Shown: positions 4,086 through 62,399, numbered from the stretch's first letter. The stretch is 64,000 nt of DNA from Candidatus Woesearchaeota archaeon (GCA_038128845.1 JAYPKL010000001.1:42338-106337), one strand, 5' to 3'. Numbers and translations: made by a program. Notes: generated by a model not told the origin, from the sequence alone.

Positions 4086-5981
4086 ATGAAGGGTATATCT
4101 GAAATATTATCTATAACAATTGTAACATTAATTACTTTAACTGTATTTTCAGGTTTTTTTTATTGGTATTCGAATATTTCGGAAGATTCTAAAATTGGTT
4201 CAGAAGATTACACTAAAGAAATACAAAGTCAAATAATTACAACTTCAAATAAAATAATAGATGACTTGTATGATGTTTCAAAGGAAAAAAACATTAACAA
4301 TTTTGGAGAATTAACCTATACTATTGAAGCAGAAGATGGTCCAATTTCAATAGATTCAGAAGATTCAAGTTTTTCTCTATATGAAGGATATGGTTCGAAT
4401 ACTGAACTAATTTGTTCAGATTTTGGTTTAAATTGTAATTGTGAAAATGAAATACAAAAAATCTTTGGAGTTTTAGTTAATAATGATACTACTAAAGGAA
4501 TATACTTTTTAGAATATGATTCGATTAATGGCTTTTCTGAAAAACAATTGAAAATTTTTGGAAATTCAAATAATATTAGAAGATGCGATATAAGATATTT
4601 TGATCAATTTGTTGAGGGCGGAAATGATTGTAATGAGCCTAAAAACTTACTTGCAACAGGTTATTGTACTGATGATGATTCTTTTTATGAAAAAGCCACA
4701 TTCGTTTTAGATTCAAATTTAGATGGTAGTTACTATGATCTTTATGATACTGGAGATTTAGAAAAAATATTTGATGTTCAATTTGTAAATGATATTTTAG
4801 TTGATGATACATATCATTTATTCTCTGGTGCTTTTACAGATTATTTCAATGATTCAAATTACAATAAACAAGTTCTGTCTTTTAGCGATTTGATTTACGG
4901 AGATTATGAAAATCTAGGTTCATTTGGATTACTTCCAACTGAAACAGGAAATGCTGGATTGGCAGTAACTGCGATGGAACTTGTTTATCGAAATAATTAT
5001 CCTGCTTTACTCTTCGGAACCAGTCACGAAGAAGCAACTATAACAGGTGGAGCATATTTGGCAATTTCAGATGAACCTGAAAATAATGCAATATTCCAGG
5101 GAAATTTTAGGGCTTTTACTTCAGGATTTGATTGTCCATATGATATGGGTACTTTCTTAAGTGCAGGATTTGATATAGCTAAAATTGCCAATTGCGATAT
5201 TGATTTTAACTCAGTAGTAGAAATTGTTAAAACCGACTTGGTTGAAGATACTTATATTGATTCAGATCCTGTTATTTTAGGTTTAAATGAAGTTACAGAT
5301 GGAATCACAACTTTACCGATTGCAGTATTTTTTACAGATTATAATTACACTTCAACAAGAATTTATAACTTAGATTTAAGTACACTTGGTTTACCGCTTG
5401 ATGTAAAAATTACTCATATGTTTTATGATGATTCAAATGATAGAGTTTTTATTTTACTTGAGTCGACTATTCCTGGTTCTTTAACTACTCAAGTTATTGT
5501 GATTGATCATAATTTTGTTACATTAACTCCTCATTTAATCGAATTGAGTGGTGCAATAGACCCAAGTCTTGATGTGGAAAGTTTTACTGTAATAAATAAC
5601 ACTTTATTTTTTGGAGGGAATTATAATGATGGTATGGGAACCAATCAATCGGAAATATATACTGCCGTATTTGATGAAGAAACATTTGGATTATCTTCCG
5701 TTAATAGAGTGTATAGTAACAATACATTTTACTCTGTTTCAAATTTAGTTACTTTGAATTTATGTGAAGAAAAATCTCCATATTTAGAAACGGAATGTGA
5801 TATAAAACGAGGAGAATCTTGTGAAATAATTTTAAATATTGAAGATACTGATTGTGATATATCGGATTATCCTTCTGAAACTCAATTTTCTTCAACTTTA
5901 ACATTTGGAAAAAATAAAATCTATGAAATATTTAAGAAAGGGAGTGATCCGAGCGAGGAAACGGATTTAGTAGTTGTATGA
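4086..5981 (+). CDS. large secreted or pilus-associated protein with pilin-like N-terminal helix
   Basis: 631 aa. N-terminus MKG|ISEILSITIVTLITLTVFSGFFYW (hydrophobic helix after a KG leader). Asp/Cys-rich body. First gene of an overlapping operon (stop overlaps the next start). Confidence 0.5.
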   Translation: MKGISEILSITIVTLITLTVFSGFFYWYSNISEDSKIGSEDYTKEIQSQIITTSNKIIDDLYDVSKEKNINNFGELTYTIEAEDGPISIDSEDSSFSLYEGYGSNTELICSDFGLNCNCENEIQKIFGVLVNNDTTKGIYFLEYDSINGFSEKQLKIFGNSNNIRRCDIRYFDQFVEGGNDCNEPKNLLATGYCTDDDSFYEKATFVLDSNLDGSYYDLYDTGDLEKIFDVQFVNDILVDDTYHLFSGAFTDYFNDSNYNKQVLSFSDLIYGDYENLGSFGLLPTETGNAGLAVTAMELVYRNNYPALLFGTSHEEATITGGAYLAISDEPENNAIFQGNFRAFTSGFDCPYDMGTFLSAGFDIAKIANCDIDFNSVVEIVKTDLVEDTYIDSDPVILGLNEVTDGITTLPIAVFFTDYNYTSTRIYNLDLSTLGLPLDVKITHMFYDDSNDRVFILLESTIPGSLTTQVIVIDHNFVTLTPHLIELSGAIDPSLDVESFTVINNTLFFGGNYNDGMGTNQSEIYTAVFDEETFGLSSVNRVYSNNTFYSVSNLVTLNLCEEKSPYLETECDIKRGESCEIILNIEDTDCDISDYPSETQFSSTLTFGKNKIYEIFKKGSDPSEETDLVVV

Positions 5982-18034: not shown

Positions 18035-18850
18035 ATGAATATAAAAAAGATTTATACAAAAAATTGGAAAAAATTGATGATTATACCAATTATATTCTTT
18101 TTATTATCTTGTGGAATTTTATATAATAATTATCAGGAAACTGGAGAATACATAAACAAAGATGTTTCTTTGAAAGGCGGTTATCTTATTACAATTAAAA
18201 CAGATTCTCAAATATCTGATGAATATAATTCAAGAGAATTAGTCGCAGTTGGTTCTGGAAAAAGATTAGGATATACAGTAGAATATGGCGGAAATGAAAT
18301 TGATAATTTTATAACCAAATTGTCTTCTGAATTGAATTCCAATCAATACAGTATCGAAGAATTATCTCCTTCTATTGCAAATAGATTCTGGGAAGGAACA
18401 ATTAAAGCAATATCTATTGCAATACTTGCGATGTCTGGAGTTATGTTGTTGTATTTCAGAAGGTTTGTTCCGGCATTTGGAATTATTATTTCAGGTATAT
18501 CAAACATTGTTAATACTTTGGCAGTACTGACTTTACTCGGAATAAATTTATCTTCTTCGGGTATTGCAGCATTATTAATGTTATTAGGTTACTCCATTGA
18601 TTCAAATATTGTGCTGACTTCAAGAGTATTAAAAAATAAACATCAAAAACTAGAGGATAGAATCTTTTCAGCATTTGAAACAGGTATGACAATGACAATT
18701 ACCTCAATTGTTGCATTAACAATTTTATATTTAACAAGTTCTGCTGAGATTCTTAAAGTCATATCAGTTACATTAATAGTAGGTTTATTATTTGATATGG
18801 TTAATACTTGGATACAAAATGCAGGAATTTTGAGGTATAGTCTGAAATGA
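18035..18850 (+). CDS. secF: protein-export membrane protein SecF
   Basis: 271 aa. One N-terminal TM, a periplasmic domain, then a 5-TM bundle. Sits directly upstream of SecD with a 4-bp overlap. Confidence 0.7.
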   Translation: MNIKKIYTKNWKKLMIIPIIFFLLSCGILYNNYQETGEYINKDVSLKGGYLITIKTDSQISDEYNSRELVAVGSGKRLGYTVEYGGNEIDNFITKLSSELNSNQYSIEELSPSIANRFWEGTIKAISIAILAMSGVMLLYFRRFVPAFGIIISGISNIVNTLAVLTLLGINLSSSGIAALLMLLGYSIDSNIVLTSRVLKNKHQKLEDRIFSAFETGMTMTITSIVALTILYLTSSAEILKVISVTLIVGLLFDMVNTWIQNAGILRYSLK

Positions 18851-20346
18851 AAAAAATAATTTTATCCGGAAGAATGATTTTACTTATATTTTTCCTAATT
18901 ATGTCTTTGGTTGCAATTTCTCCTAAACCTTTTGCAGAAGGTTTTATGATATATAATGTTGAAAAAAATTCTTCTGCGGAGTTTGCGGGAATATCTGTCG
19001 GAGAGAAATTAATATCAATAAATGAAAATTTAATAATAACTTCAGATGATTTGAACAATCTTGATATTGATTATGGAGAAATAATTACAATCAAAACTTC
19101 TGAAAATAATTATAAAATTTTATACTACGGAGATTTTGGATTTGAATTGAGAGAACAAAAAACATCCAATATTCAGAAAGGTCTGGATTTGGTTGGAGGA
19201 GTAAGAGTTGTTCTAAAACCAACTGTGGATTTATCTGAAGAGCAAATTATTGACACTCTGGATTTACTTGAAAAAAGACTTAATGTTTTTGGAGTGAGTG
19301 ATTTAACAATAAGAAATTCTCAAGATTTGGAAGGTACAAATTATATTATTATCGAAATTGCAGGAGCAAATAAAGAAGACGTTTTGAATTTAGTGTCAAA
19401 AAAAGGAGTTTTTGAGGCAAAAATAGGTGAGGACGTAGTTTTTACTGGCGGTAAAGACATAAAATCGGTATGTAGAAGCGTAGAGTGTGCGGGAATTCCC
19501 GCTCAAAATGGATGTTATCCTACTGAAAACGGATACCAATGTAGAAACTTTTTCAGAGTAGATATAACTCCCGACTCTGCAGAATTACACGGTTCAATTA
19601 CAGAAAAATTATCTGTAACAAACGGATATTTGGATAAAAAATTAGATTTATTTTTGGATAATGAATTGATAAGTAGTTTATTTATATCTGAGAGTTTGAA
19701 AGGTTCTAGGTCAACATCATTCACTATTCAAGGTTCTGGAGAGGGAATTAATGAACAAGATGCAATCACAAATTCTTTGAATAATATGAAGGAAATGCAG
19801 ACTCTATTAATTTCAGGATCGCTGCCTTATGAAGTAGAAGTTGAAAGAGTCGATTTAATTTCTGCAGAATTGGGAGAAAGTTTTTTCTCATCTGCAATAT
19901 TGTCTATTATTCTGGCAATTTTTGGAGTTGCAGGGGCAGTATTTGTACGATATAGATCGTGGAAAGTTTCGGTTCCAATTATGATTACTGGAATTAGTGA
20001 AGTTGTGATAATTTTGGGATTTGCTTCTTTAATCAGATGGAATTTAGATTTGGCAGCAATTGCAGGAATTGTTGCAGCAGTTGGAACGGGGGTTGACGAT
20101 CAAATTGTTATAACTGACGAAGTTATGAAAGGAATTAAATTAGATACTACTTGGAGAGAGCGTATGGCAAAGGCGTTTGCAATTATTTTTGCAGCATATT
20201 TCACTATGATCGTTTCAATGTTGCCATTATGGTTCTTGGGTGCAGGTGTATTGAGAGGATTTGCGTTAACTACTATAGTTGGAGTAACAATTGGAGTATT
20301 TATTACAAGACCTGCATTTGCTAAAATGATTGAAACATTAAAATAA
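18847..20346 (+). CDS. secD: protein-export membrane protein SecD
   Basis: 499 aa. Large extracytoplasmic domain (LDLVGGVRVVLKPT...) followed by a 6-TM C-terminal bundle (RND-like). Confidence 0.7.
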   Translation: MKKIILSGRMILLIFFLIMSLVAISPKPFAEGFMIYNVEKNSSAEFAGISVGEKLISINENLIITSDDLNNLDIDYGEIITIKTSENNYKILYYGDFGFELREQKTSNIQKGLDLVGGVRVVLKPTVDLSEEQIIDTLDLLEKRLNVFGVSDLTIRNSQDLEGTNYIIIEIAGANKEDVLNLVSKKGVFEAKIGEDVVFTGGKDIKSVCRSVECAGIPAQNGCYPTENGYQCRNFFRVDITPDSAELHGSITEKLSVTNGYLDKKLDLFLDNELISSLFISESLKGSRSTSFTIQGSGEGINEQDAITNSLNNMKEMQTLLISGSLPYEVEVERVDLISAELGESFFSSAILSIILAIFGVAGAVFVRYRSWKVSVPIMITGISEVVIILGFASLIRWNLDLAAIAGIVAAVGTGVDDQIVITDEVMKGIKLDTTWRERMAKAFAIIFAAYFTMIVSMLPLWFLGAGVLRGFALTTIVGVTIGVFITRPAFAKMIETLK

Positions 20347-20348
20347 AA

Positions 20349-20374
20349 AGCAAGCCAAAGCTTGCTAATTTTTT
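20349..20374. terminator. perfect 7-bp stem/4-nt loop hairpin (AGCAAGC-CAAA-GCTTGCT) followed by a T-tract, between convergent genes
   Basis: Read directly from the sequence. Located 3 nt after the secD stop and 12 nt before the stop of the minus-strand 20386..20661 ORF. Confidence 0.35.
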
Positions 20375-20385
20375 GCAAAATTAAT

Positions 20386-20661
20386 TTATTTATTACTTCT
20401 TTTTGCAGTTGTTTTTCTAGCACCAGTTGATCTTCTTGAAGTAGTAGATCTGCCTGCTGCGACTCTTCTTGAAGATGAAGCTCTTGATCTTGTAGAAGTT
20501 GATCTTGATCTGGAATTAGATCTACTTGCAGAAGATTTACGGGCAGTAGTTGCTCTGCCTGTGGTTGTTCTTCTTGCAGCCGTAGTTGATCTTCTTCCAG
20601 AAGATCTACTTGAAGATCTTGTTGAACTTCTTCCAAGTAATCTTCTCAATAATGTTCGCAT
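20386..20661 (-). CDS. hypothetical highly basic Arg/Ser/Thr-rich low-complexity protein
   Basis: About 92 codons. MRTLLRRLLGRSSTRSSSRSSGRRSTTAARRTTTGRATTARKSSASRSNSRSRSTSTRSRASSSRRVAAGRSTTSRRSTGARKTTAKRSNK. The DNA is locally GC-richer than its surroundings, with repeated AGATCT/AAGATCTT palindromes. A second frame on the same strand is also open (acidic Q/E/L-rich). Confidence 0.3.
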   Translation of the reverse strand: MRTLLRRLLGRSSTRSSSRSSGRRSTTAARRTTTGRATTARKSSASRSNSRSRSTSTRSRASSSRRVAAGRSTTSRRSTGARKTTAKRSNK

Positions 20662-20729
20662 AATGAAAATATATATTGAAGTATATAAATATATCACTAA
20701 GTTTTTTAAGGAAAATTAACAAAAATAAT

Positions 20730-21575
20730 ATGGTTTTAGAAGCATTAGGAAATCCTTCGTATTTACAAAAAAATCCCAAGGAACTATTTATACTTTCTTT
20801 TTCATATACTGCCATTGCAGTTCTACTTTCTCTATGGATTTTTCCAGAATATGCGGGATTAACAATGGTATTTTTTTCAGTTATGGCAACAATTCCGTTA
20901 ATGTTAAAGATGATATTATTTGAAGAAAAAAAATATATGTCAAACCCTTATGATGAAAAACATATAGGTGCAATTAAGTTTTTTGTATTTATGTTTCTAG
21001 GTATGGTGGGTGCATATACTTTGTTTTTTGTAATGTTGCCTGAATCTTCTGTATCAAATCTATTTAGTATTCAATTAGAAACCATTAATCAAATCAATAC
21101 AGATATAAGTAAAACAATAACAGGAAAATATATTGGAGACTTATTTTCAATCATATTGATTAATAATCTCAAAGTGATGGTATTTGCATTACTTTTTTCA
21201 TTTATTTATGGATCTGGAGCAATATTTATTCTTACTTGGAATGCATCAGTAATTTCTGTTGCAATTGGTAGTTTAATTCGTAAAATGATTTATGTGGCGG
21301 GAAGTGCTACTGGATCCGTTTCTGTGACTGGATATTTTGGCGCCATTACTACAGGATTATCGAGATATTTATTGCACGGTATTCCGGAAATTGGTGCTTA
21401 TTTTGTAGCTGGTCTTGCAGGAGGATTAATATCTATAGCAACAATAAAATATCAAATGAATGATTCGAATTTTAGTAAAATTATGAGAGATGTTTTATTT
21501 TTAGTATTTATTTCGATTTTACTAATTGTTTTATCTGCGATTGTTGAAGTTTCAATATCTCCGATGATTGCGTAA
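20730..21575 (+). CDS. polytopic integral membrane protein (possibly SpoIIM/DUF95-like)
   Basis: Start placed at MVLEALG (internal Met of track ORF 20676..21575) to leave room for divergent promoters. At least 6 predicted TM helices. Family assignment is tentative. Confidence 0.45.
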   Translation: MVLEALGNPSYLQKNPKELFILSFSYTAIAVLLSLWIFPEYAGLTMVFFSVMATIPLMLKMILFEEKKYMSNPYDEKHIGAIKFFVFMFLGMVGAYTLFFVMLPESSVSNLFSIQLETINQINTDISKTITGKYIGDLFSIILINNLKVMVFALLFSFIYGSGAIFILTWNASVISVAIGSLIRKMIYVAGSATGSVSVTGYFGAITTGLSRYLLHGIPEIGAYFVAGLAGGLISIATIKYQMNDSNFSKIMRDVLFLVFISILLIVLSAIVEVSISPMIA

Positions 21576-21608: not shown

Positions 21609-24098
21609 ATGAGCGAAGAATATATTGATTTTACAAAACAAATTGAATTTTTTAAAAATAAGATTACAAAAATTAAAAATTATAAAAATTTAGAATATAT
21701 GATTTTAGGATCAATTATGCTTTTTGCGTTTTATTTGAGAACGTTGAATTTGAAATTACTTCAAGGTAAATATTTGTTGGGTTTGGATCCATATTATTAT
21801 TTGAGACAATCTACTGAAATCTTAACTTATGGGAAATTGCCGTTTCCCGATTTGATGCGAAATGCTCCTTTCGGTATAGAAAAAAGTTTTGATTTGTTTC
21901 CTTATTTTTTAGCATATTTATCTAAATTTTTTGGATTGTTTGGATTTACTGTCACTGAAACGCACATTTTATATCCTTCAATTATAATGGTATTGTCTTT
22001 AATTCCGTTATATTTTGCAATTAAATTAATATTTGATAAGAATATTGCATTATTATCGGTATTTATTTTAAGTATACTTCCAGCATATTTATTTCGTACA
22101 ATGTCCGGTTTCTCAGATCATGAGTCAATATCTATGTTTTTCATCTTCTTGACATTCTATTTTTTAATTAAGTCTGAAAAAGAATCAAAAAATAAAGGGT
22201 ATATATTTTCGAGTTTGGCTGGATTTTGTACGTTTTTGATGGCCATATTATGGAATGCTTATCCATTTTTATTTATTATTATTGGAAGTTATTATCTGCT
22301 GCAGCTTTTTTTCTCAAAGATAGATTACAAAAAATATTTGATTTTCTTTATATCCTTACTTATTCCGTTTATTTTATTTAAACCGATCAACTTTGGAGAT
22401 ATAGGCCTATTATATTTAATTTTAATTTCTCTGGTTATTTTATTAAATGAAAAATTTAATTTTGAGAAAAGAATAAATATTCCGAATATTGTTTCAACTT
22501 TAATTATTTTGTTTTTTATGAGTATTATATTTATAATTTTCTCGGACATAATTTCAATTTCTGAAATTATGAACAAACTTTTGAATGCGGGCGGAGTTGC
22601 TAAAGTAGATTTTACTACTTCTGAAGCAATATCAACGAAAGTTATGGGATCGAATGGTTATTATTCTCAGTTTAATGAATTTATATTCATAAGTTTTATT
22701 GGTTTTATATTTTTATTAAATAATATATTTTCAAAACTCAATAAAAAGGAGAATATTATTCTCACCAGCATATTCTCATTATCCGTAGGTTTAGTTATTT
22801 TTGGTAATTGGAATTCTAATATTATTTTGATGAAAGACAATTATATTTATTTCTTATTTGCAATTTTTATATTATTTAATCTATATTACTCGCAAATATA
22901 TCGTAGAAAAGACCATCATAAAATAAATAAAATTAAAAATCCGGAAATTTTATTGTTTGTTTCATATTTTTTAATTTCAGGTTTACTTGCTCGAACGGCT
23001 GTAAGATTTTTATTTTTAATGAGTCCAATAGTTGCAATACTTTCCGGTTATGCGATTAATAAAATTTATATTAAACTAAAAAAGAATAAAATTTATTCTC
23101 TTGGATTAATTATAATTTTTGCAATACTTGCAGCAGGTTCAATTAACCAGTCAATATTAATGGGTAAATCTATGGGAAGTAATTTTCCTGGTCAATGGGA
23201 AACTTCTATGAATTGGATTTCAGATAATATAGAAGAAGATGCAATTTTTGCTCATTGGTGGGATTACGGATATTGGACTCAATATGCGGGGAAAAAGGCA
23301 ACGGTCAGCGACGGAGGAAGAGCAGGAGGAGATTTGGGAATATATACTTTGGCAAGATACGGTATGTTGGGATCTGATGAACAGGAAACATTATCTTATT
23401 TTAAATCAAGAAATGTAGAATATCTTTTGTATTCTGAAGAAGAATTATATAAGTATGGTGCATTTTCATATATTGGTTCTGATATTAACAACGATAAAAA
23501 GTCAAACATAGGTATGTTTATATTAACAGATATTAAAGAAATCAGAGAAGGAAATAAATTAACTTACTCGGGAAATTGGATATTAGATTCTGATATAATT
23601 GAAGGAAATAAATTAATTAATGAAGGTGCAGCTGCAATAAATAAAATCTCATTAAATTTAGACTATGAAGGAAATTTAATTGGTGAACCGAAACTAAATC
23701 TAATTTCAAAAAATTTCCAAAAAGAATATGATCTAGGTTGTGTGTATTTTAATGGAATTAAAATATTAAATAATGATAAACCTCTAAATTATTGCATAAC
23801 TTTAATACCTTCTATAAGCGCAAATGGTGCAACTCAAGAACTGGGTGCAATACTTTTGCAATCAAATAAAGTACATGGTACTTTATTTTCTGAATTATAT
23901 ATAAACGATAAAAAAACTTCAAATTACGTAAAAGTTTATCAAGACAATACTCCTTTGGCAATGTATAACGGAAGATTAATTGGTCCAATAAAAATTTGGA
24001 AAATTAATTATACGGGTAATGAAAATAATTTTGATAGATTTTTAGAACAAGGAGTCCATGAAAAATATTATCCAAATAACGGAATATATAGCATTTAA
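21609..24098 (+). CDS. aglB: archaeal oligosaccharyltransferase AglB (STT3 family)
   Basis: 829 aa. About 13 N-terminal TM helices, then a soluble domain containing the diagnostic WWDYG motif (FAHWWDYGYWTQY). Confidence 0.85.
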   Translation: MSEEYIDFTKQIEFFKNKITKIKNYKNLEYMILGSIMLFAFYLRTLNLKLLQGKYLLGLDPYYYLRQSTEILTYGKLPFPDLMRNAPFGIEKSFDLFPYFLAYLSKFFGLFGFTVTETHILYPSIIMVLSLIPLYFAIKLIFDKNIALLSVFILSILPAYLFRTMSGFSDHESISMFFIFLTFYFLIKSEKESKNKGYIFSSLAGFCTFLMAILWNAYPFLFIIIGSYYLLQLFFSKIDYKKYLIFFISLLIPFILFKPINFGDIGLLYLILISLVILLNEKFNFEKRINIPNIVSTLIILFFMSIIFIIFSDIISISEIMNKLLNAGGVAKVDFTTSEAISTKVMGSNGYYSQFNEFIFISFIGFIFLLNNIFSKLNKKENIILTSIFSLSVGLVIFGNWNSNIILMKDNYIYFLFAIFILFNLYYSQIYRRKDHHKINKIKNPEILLFVSYFLISGLLARTAVRFLFLMSPIVAILSGYAINKIYIKLKKNKIYSLGLIIIFAILAAGSINQSILMGKSMGSNFPGQWETSMNWISDNIEEDAIFAHWWDYGYWTQYAGKKATVSDGGRAGGDLGIYTLARYGMLGSDEQETLSYFKSRNVEYLLYSEEELYKYGAFSYIGSDINNDKKSNIGMFILTDIKEIREGNKLTYSGNWILDSDIIEGNKLINEGAAAINKISLNLDYEGNLIGEPKLNLISKNFQKEYDLGCVYFNGIKILNNDKPLNYCITLIPSISANGATQELGAILLQSNKVHGTLFSELYINDKKTSNYVKVYQDNTPLAMYNGRLIGPIKIWKINYTGNENNFDRFLEQGVHEKYYPNNGIYSI

Positions 24099-62295: not shown

Positions 62296-62399
62296 GGGCG
62301 TATAGCTTAGTCTGGTAGAGCGCTGGTCTTATAAGGCCACTTCCGAAATGGAAGATCTGAGTATACCAGAGGTCCCAGGTTCAAATCCTGGTTCGCCCA
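62296..62399 (+). tRNA. intron-containing tRNA with anticodon UAU (tRNA-Ile, AUA-reading); ~30-nt intron at canonical 37/38 position (about 62334..62363)
   Basis: Acceptor GGGCGTA/TTCGCCC (one U-U mismatch), D-arm GCTT...GAGC, anticodon stem CTGGT/ACCAG with loop CTTATA^(intron)T, T-arm CCAGG-TTCAAAT-CCTGG, discriminator A. The intron contains the hairpin CTTCC-GAAAT-GGAAG. Confidence 0.6.

Follow-up and report, generated by a model that had tools for sequence, protein, structure and literature searches.

A candidate gene for a small Arg/Ser/Thr-rich polycation, and the reading frames that shadow it, beside secD in a Woesearchaeota archaeon

The island between secD and the SpoIIM-like gene

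The stretch of DNA analysed here, a window of 64,000 nucleotides (nt) from a Candidatus Woesearchaeota archaeon (GCA_038128845.1 JAYPKL010000001.1:42338-106337), has an overall guanine plus cytosine (GC) content of 28.8%, and its SecD is at most 50% identical to the SecD of Woesearchaeota/Nanoarchaeota (DPANN) metagenome-assembled genomes. Between the genes for SecD and for a SpoIIM-like membrane protein lies a small island of raised GC content, in which an earlier reading, made from the sequence only, had described two open frames on the minus strand (frames A and B) and a hairpin followed by a T-tract. We consider it likely that the island holds a small gene for a protein, encoded by frame A of the minus strand and confined to a narrow marine clade of Woesearchaeota/Nanoarchaeota-like DPANN archaea. 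The features on which the argument turns are the following.

20386-20661, minus strand: coding sequence of frame A, 91 amino acids (aa), with its TAA stop at 20386-20388
20620-20661, minus strand: codons 1-14 of frame A, the conserved N-terminal segment MRTLLRRLLGRSST, identical as a peptide in all 13 contigs
20682-20689, minus strand: TATA box TTTATATA, starting 28 nt upstream of the frame A ATG
20702-20709, plus strand: putative TATA box TTTTTTAA, 28 nt before the ATG (20730) of the divergent SpoIIM-like gene
20349-20366, both strands: hairpin AGCAAGC-CAAA-GCTTGCT, lying where secD (stop codon 20344-20346) and frame A (stop codon 20386-20388) converge
20100-20636, minus strand: frame B, offset by +1 from frame A, its distal part antisense to the 3' end of secD
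20369-20719, plus strand: shadow frame, 116 codons from stop to stop

Both minus-strand frames are open as had been described, and the product of frame A (MRTLLRRLLGRSSTRSS...KRSNK; the whole translation of 20386-20661, minus strand, is MRTLLRRLLGRSSTRSSSRSSGRRSTTAARRTTTGRATTARKSSASRSNSRSRSTSTRSRASSSRRVAAGRSTTSRRSTGARKTTAKRSNK) is indeed strongly basic, with a net charge of about +27 and an isoelectric point at which the calculator saturates (12.0). It comprises 24 Arg, 24 Ser, 16 Thr, 10 Ala, 5 Gly and 4 Lys and has no Asp, Glu or Cys; Arg accounts for 24/91 residues (26%) and Arg plus Lys for 28/91 (31%), and there are 18 RS/SR dipeptides in the 91 residues. Only the segment encoded by codons 1-14 is conserved in sequence. 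The tail, made nearly entirely of Arg, Ser, Thr, Ala, Gly and Lys with essentially no acidic or hydrophobic residues, varies in sequence and in length (91 or 69 residues for the two types of protein, with expected masses of about 9.9 and 7.9 kDa) and keeps 27-28 positive charges. In a single-sequence AlphaFold2 model, residues 3-9 form a helix and all others are coil; the mean predicted local distance difference test (pLDDT) score is 56.5, a low-confidence result that is consistent with a disordered tail.

Disruption of the frame in close relatives had been named beforehand as the sign of a non-coding repeat, and the search for homologous islands found the opposite: frame A is intact in 13 contigs (JGI, ENA/TARA and Logan), which comprise six distinct haplotypes of the 91-aa type and three of the 69-aa type, and the island is missing from more distant relatives. 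The samples behind these contigs are JGI 3300018428, ENA ERZ27313157/177/208, TARA ERR599158 and Logan SRR26337528. The 69-aa type is exemplified by L025, a contig from a TARA marine sample and, at 83%, the closest divergent relative, whose island carries a 69-aa minus-strand open reading frame (ORF; MRTLLRRLLGRSSTKSAARSRKRSTTAKRTTATKTRSRSTARKTSSSRRVTAARSTRRAPRKTTRKARK). All length differences among the relatives leave frame A open. The sole 1-nt indel, an extra A in an A-run of L043 (locus ~4852-4870), shifts only the last codons, and the resulting protein of 89 aa ends in ...TTAKKK instead of ...TTAKRSNK and still has 28 basic residues.

Synonymous-site conservation, which had been suggested as the means of choosing between the two minus-strand frames, favors frame A and not frame B. 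Counted within the haplotypes of the 91-aa type, 28 of 48 substitutions fall at codon position 3 of frame A (p = 3e-4), and 29/48 are synonymous in that frame against 28.7% expected (p = 5e-6). When the 91-aa type is compared with the 69-aa type, codons 1-14 show five synonymous and no non-synonymous changes (non-synonymous divergence dN = 0, synonymous divergence dS = 0.78). Replacements that alter charge are rare in frame A (1/19 vs 35% expected, p = 0.003), and the sum of Arg and Lys is 28 in every variant of 89-91 aa and 27 in every variant of 69 aa, which points to the N-terminal segment and the count of positive charges as the targets of selection. For frame B, only 8/48 substitutions are synonymous, as expected at random (p = 0.8), and the ratio of non-synonymous to synonymous differences per site (pN/pS) is about 1 or more in all eight pairs (0.93-3.28, or zero synonymous changes). 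In L025 frame B carries three stops and is cut at the sole codon where this can happen, GTA-ACA giving TAA. Frame B was therefore rejected.

Frame A is bordered by conserved motifs that resemble a promoter and a terminator. A TATA box starting at about this distance from the start codon is the geometry of leaderless archaeal transcripts, and in the window a TATA-like motif begins between -26 and -32 in 14 other genes. The motif TTTATATA is invariant in all distinct upstream haplotypes, at -28 (-30 in L025), a position that implies a leaderless transcript for frame A. Two traits of archaeal leaderless genes, a TATA box some 26-30 nt upstream and purifying selection in the frame, are thus found together. 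On the other strand, TTTTTTAA is kept in every haplotype and is followed by a variable spacer up to the SpoIIM ATG; by its geometry the motif may serve as the TATA box of the SpoIIM-like gene; the 68-nt spacer appears to hold two divergent promoters. The hairpin described earlier is present at 20349-20366, with a stem of 7 base pairs and a loop of 4 nt, and is bordered by T6 on the plus strand (20369-20374) and T4AT4 on the minus strand, so that it could act as a terminator in both directions. Geometry is what suggests that these promoter-like and terminator-like motifs would be active. At the same place, L025 has a hairpin of different sequence.

Open frames as shadows of frame A

The sequence-only reading had called the island far more GC-rich than its surroundings and built from degenerate repeats rich in AGATCT. 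Its GC content is raised (38.8% vs 28.8%), but the contrast was overstated (z = 2.1), and the same level or a higher one is reached in 13 other stretches of the window. When composition was compared with that of other genes, the whole GC excess proved to come from the second positions of frame A's codons: positions 1, 2 and 3 have 21%, 87% and 10% GC in frame A, as against 39%, 32% and 18% in the long genes of the window. The island thus owes its GC content to the composition of frame A, in which 87% of the codons carry G or C as their second letter. AGATCT does occur four times in the island, out of 21 copies in the whole 64 kb, and all four are in-frame AGA-TCT (Arg-Ser) codon pairs, built from the codons that the genome prefers; the palindromes are therefore also a consequence of frame A's composition. 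The repeats, on the other hand, are weak, with a 21-nt unit in 2.3 copies at 75% match by Tandem Repeats Finder, and internal blastn pairs of 33-36 nt at 78-82% identity.

Two overlapping frames open for so long had been judged very unlikely by chance. This is so for random sequence, but not for sequence that encodes frame A. Frame B is read from the second letter of frame A's codons (20661 - 20636 = 25; 25 mod 3 = 1), and consequently only a frame A codon with T as its second letter can give it a stop. Such codons specify Leu, Ile, Val, Phe or Met, and after residue 9 Val67 is the only one. In the open antisense frame, a stop can arise only opposite Tyr, His or Gln codons, of which frame A has none. 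Since frame A excludes T at position 2 and TA or CA at positions 1-2, stops are impossible in the +1 frame and in one antisense frame. When the codons of frame A were reordered at random (n = 5000), frame B and the plus-strand frame were both open in 5000/5000 shuffles, whereas in mononucleotide shuffles any fully open sense frame occurred in 0.5% and two open frames in 0/5000. Frame A is thus improbable by chance, and the two other frames add no information to it: both are its shadows. The same point has been made for frame -1, in which the codon usage of the annotated gene accounts for long ORFs (PMC3454372).

The plus-strand frame, overlooked by the earlier reading, is fully open across the island, has no stops in either length type (91 or 69), contains as in-frame starts only a GTG at 20561 and an ATG near its end, and would encode a Leu/Val/Asp/Glu-rich peptide. 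In haplotypes L050 and L037 this frame is open for 184 codons, extending past the promoter region to overlap, in another frame, the beginning of the SpoIIM-like gene. Frame B is a shadow ORF and not a gene, and neither is the plus-strand frame a gene, although public gene calls annotate it.

Several observations weigh against frame A and are best considered together. The antisense frame on the plus strand has its wobble position in common with frame A and a near-equal pN/pS; this shared wobble leaves the start codon, codon usage, promoter geometry and no more than three discordant substitutions as grounds for choosing the strand. The overall pN/pS between the two length types is 0.4-0.6, a loose constraint on the tail. 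The amphipathicity of the N-terminal helix is unremarkable, since 34% of residue shuffles score as high. Finally, no homologue of the frame A protein was found in Pfam, NCBIfam, PHROGs or PDB sequences, nor by phmmer in 5.8 billion proteins or 1.84 billion representatives. These homology negatives are weak, as the composition correction of HMMER is harsh on such sequences and as frame A products are missing from the protein collection: in an exact look-up of four frame A variants among 15 billion proteins, none was present, which explains in part why the searches returned nothing. In the gene calls of ENA and JGI, it is the plus-strand shadow frame that is entered as a protein, of 70-165 aa (L025 678-890, plus strand; P0121-P0127), and only a Logan gene call carries the real minus-strand product.

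It is against this background that the other explanations of the island have to be weighed. That the plus-strand frame is the true gene, for an acidic Leu/Val/Asp/Glu-rich peptide, with frame A as its shadow, seems very unlikely to us, even though it is fully open in both types, runs in the same direction as secD and the SpoIIM-like gene, was picked by the JGI and ENA gene callers, has a pN/pS as low as that of frame A in several pairs and counts 26/48 substitutions as synonymous (p = 1e-4). Its start codon is not conserved, being absent in L036 and first met at residue 64/116 in the window and 59/111 in L043, whereas the ATG of frame A is invariant. Codon usage points the same way, the fit being 0.87 bits per codon for frame A and 0.43 +/- 0.06 for the long genes of the window, but 0.22 for the antisense frame and 0.0 for frame B; the antisense Leu codons are CTN in a genome where TTA makes up 53% of Leu use. 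A degeneracy-class test of the wobble position, sense against antisense, gave 1/7 vs 1/8 variable sites, too few to be of use, but all three strand-discordant substitutions (3/3) leave the frame A product unchanged and alter that of the antisense frame, and the changes between the Arg codons CGA and AGA likewise are silent only in frame A and non-synonymous on the plus strand. Moreover, the hairpin with its T6 tract separates secD from the plus-strand frame, and beyond the position of the frame A ATG the C-terminal continuation of the plus-strand peptide differs between the two types, with unrelated tails of 20 and 7 residues.

Genuine dual coding, in which frame A and either frame B or the antisense frame would both be translated and selected, had been among the earlier proposals and is now scarcely credible. 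Several long open frames do coincide here, and overlapping genes do exist in prokaryotes (PMC8850804), but the openness of the second frame is forced, as in 100% of codon-order shuffles, and can be ascribed to codon usage (PMC3454372); frame B lacks purifying selection and is interrupted in L025, and the antisense frame has no conserved start codon. Excess openness, independent selection and a conserved second start, the marks of an overlapping gene pair, are all missing. We regard as highly improbable also that the island is a non-coding insertion or a repeat remnant with accidental open frames. The absence of homologues, the low complexity, the weak internal repeats and the lack of the island in more distant relatives would agree with such a remnant, but a fully open sense frame in no more than 0.5% of mononucleotide shuffles, the three-base periodicity and synonymous excess of the substitutions, an N-terminal peptide that is invariant despite a dS of about 0.8, a number of charges kept across length variants and a TATA box conserved at the right distance would not; there is also no Rfam match in the island region. 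The idea of a low-complexity basic protein therefore stands as far as coding by frame A is concerned, on the strength of the conserved ORF, the invariant N-terminus, the synonymous excess, the charge, the promoter and the terminator.

Neighborhood, relatives and origin of the gene

The order of the genes around the island is as follows.

Hel308-type helicase: start of the gene run around the island
GCD14-type methyltransferase, minus strand: after the helicase
18035-18850: SecF
18847-20346: SecD, stop codon 20344-20346
Island: the small gene, between SecD and the SpoIIM-like gene
20730-21575: SpoIIM-like membrane protein, ATG at 20730
21609-24098: STT3/AglB-type oligosaccharyl transferase

The genes for SecF and SecD overlap by 4 nt (ATGA, 18847-18850), as they do in relatives, and form an ordinary coupled pair. 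Elsewhere in the window, at 62296-62399 on the plus strand, Rfam recognizes a tRNA of 104 nt (61.1 bits) that is not reported by ARAGORN and is probably an intron-containing archaeal tRNA.

A search with the SpoIIM-like protein recovered relatives at 83% identity, followed by others at 64% and below. Wherever the flanks were checked and present, frame A is convergent with SecD and lies 68-70 nt from the divergent SpoIIM start. In contigs whose SpoIIM-like protein is 62-64% identical, the order GCD14, SecF, SecD, SpoIIM, AglB is the same and the spacer between SecD and SpoIIM measures only 35 nt, which suggests that the frame A gene is a lineage-specific insertion. This comparison of sequences supports a gain within one clade, the gene having been inserted between older genes and facing the opposite way. 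The earlier idea of a repeat-derived insertion is thus upheld as to insertion, but not as to repeat origin, since the internal repeats are weak.

Other searches bear on how far the gene extends. A back-translated MRTLLRRLLGR pattern had 19 matches in JGI metagenome contigs, namely 8 orthologues at the same locus and 11 chance matches, the latter unrelated and in GC-rich contigs; viral contigs gave no match to the same N-terminal pattern. With the plus-strand shadow peptide as query, seven database proteins were found, which led to four more contigs, and one Logan contig has the exact sequence of the window. At the syntenic loci of 23 GTDB species (SecD at most 50% identical), no Arg/Ser/Thr-rich ORF was present within 4 kb. 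A composition scan of the window and of about 370 kb of fetched loci, which skipped contigs above 40% GC, found no paralogues.

As for the origin of the insert, no source sequence came up when the island was compared with the window by blastn, and phage and plasmid collections gave a single 50-nt, AT-rich chance match. An 11-nt inverted repeat that flanks the island was not evident, by inspection, in the flanks of L025. With no viral or plasmid similarity and with this repeat not evident in L025, an inserted mobile element or virus was not supported as a source. At the SecD/SpoIIM junctions of L026-L032 (e.g., L026 2966-3000), the 35-nt island-free spacer begins with GCAAGATT, which is also the 5' arm of the L025 hairpin (GCAAGATTATTTTCTTGC); as this motif is common to both, the insertion may have taken place just downstream of an ancestral motif. 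In one of these contigs, L030 (1580-1916), SecD is called at 349 aa vs 505 aa in relatives, after a 335-nt gap that follows SecF, which could reflect a frameshift or an assembly error.

Possible roles of the frame A protein

The polycationic charge would be the property under selection. The frame A protein would then bind nucleic acid by non-specific electrostatics, compacting or chaperoning DNA or RNA, and its N-terminal segment would provide one specific contact. We advance this function tentatively, on the basis of the charge. It is possible, if on the doubtful side, that frame A is real but serves in another role, such as a filler peptide associated with the ribosome, a membrane-active or cell-penetrating peptide directed at the host of this probable episymbiont, or a charged partner of an acidic protein. 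All the evidence for coding applies equally to these roles, selection on the number of charges and not on their sequence fits any electrostatic role, and the neighbors are genes of membrane, secretion and glycosylation functions (SecF, SecD, the SpoIIM-like protein and the STT3/AglB-type transferase). However, the protein has no signal peptide or hydrophobic segment, with no more than one or two hydrophobic residues after residue 10; nothing in the data is specific to ribosomes or membranes; and because the gene was probably inserted in the opposite orientation between older genes, the neighborhood says little about its function. A bolder and rather improbable reading is that this is a young gene, possibly born de novo in a clade of marine DPANN archaea, for a disordered, protamine-like polycation with a counted charge (+27/28), which would have a role in compacting DNA or RNA or, after delivery, in the host cell.

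Among known systems, the closest in appearance are the protamines and sperm nuclear basic proteins (Protamine P1, PF00260), which are likewise small, Arg-rich and free of acidic residues, with interspersed Ser and Thr, and which, as is probable also here, are disordered until bound, charge outweighing sequence. Arg is the majority residue of protamines, whereas it makes up about a quarter of the frame A protein, which in addition has no Cys, comes from an archaeon and has a conserved N-terminal segment without protamine counterpart. A Pfam scan (E <= 0.1) gave no match of frame A to the Protamine P1 profile, a negative that the composition correction of HMMER weakens. With the RS domains of eukaryotic SR splicing factors it shares its 18 RS/SR dipeptides, and in kinase-regulated RS domains Ser stands next to Arg, as in the frame A protein. 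Unlike SR proteins, it has no RRM or other folded domain (by Pfam, and with a 7-residue helix only in the AlphaFold2 model) and belongs to an organism without a spliceosome; we know of no RS domain in which Thr and Ala are as common. The small basic chromatin proteins (the histone fold, Alba, MC1 and Cren7/Sul7d of archaea, and the bacterial Hc1 and H1-like proteins) are likewise small and basic, of an abundant type that could coat nucleic acid. The archaeal ones have folded domains detectable by Pfam, and searches of Pfam, NCBIfam and PDB sequences matched frame A to none of the histone fold, Alba, MC1, Cren7 and Sul7d; as for the bacterial H1-like proteins, their repeats are rich in Lys, Ala and Pro and not in Arg, Ser and Thr. 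The likeness to protamines, RS domains and H1-like proteins is one of composition only, and none of the marks of membership in these families was found. The other comparison is with shadow ORFs: frame B and the plus-strand frame are open through the codon set of frame A, in the way discussed in PMC3454372, yet this is an extreme case, since two shadows span the whole gene and the gene callers took a shadow for the gene. Nothing relevant turned up in the literature when it was searched for protamine-like proteins, or small basic ones, of DPANN archaea.

The frame A gene is, then, probably an ordinary, if neat, lineage-specific small gene, and its narrow distribution limits its impact. The result that stands, a modest one, is an unannotated gene of this kind in which the number of positive charges is kept while the length shifts by a quarter. 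The idea of two overlapping genes was wrong, for a reason that can be reused elsewhere: proteins without hydrophobic residues, Tyr, His and Gln give no stops in the +1 frame and in one antisense frame. The locus further illustrates how public catalogues can annotate a gene on the wrong strand. Should the protein bind nucleic acid as proposed, an Arg/Ser/Thr polycation would join the nucleoid or RNA-associated proteins of archaea. Should it represent a class of young polycations, catalogues would be systematically missing such archaeal proteins, through antisense shadow calls and the discarding of low-complexity sequence in profile searches.

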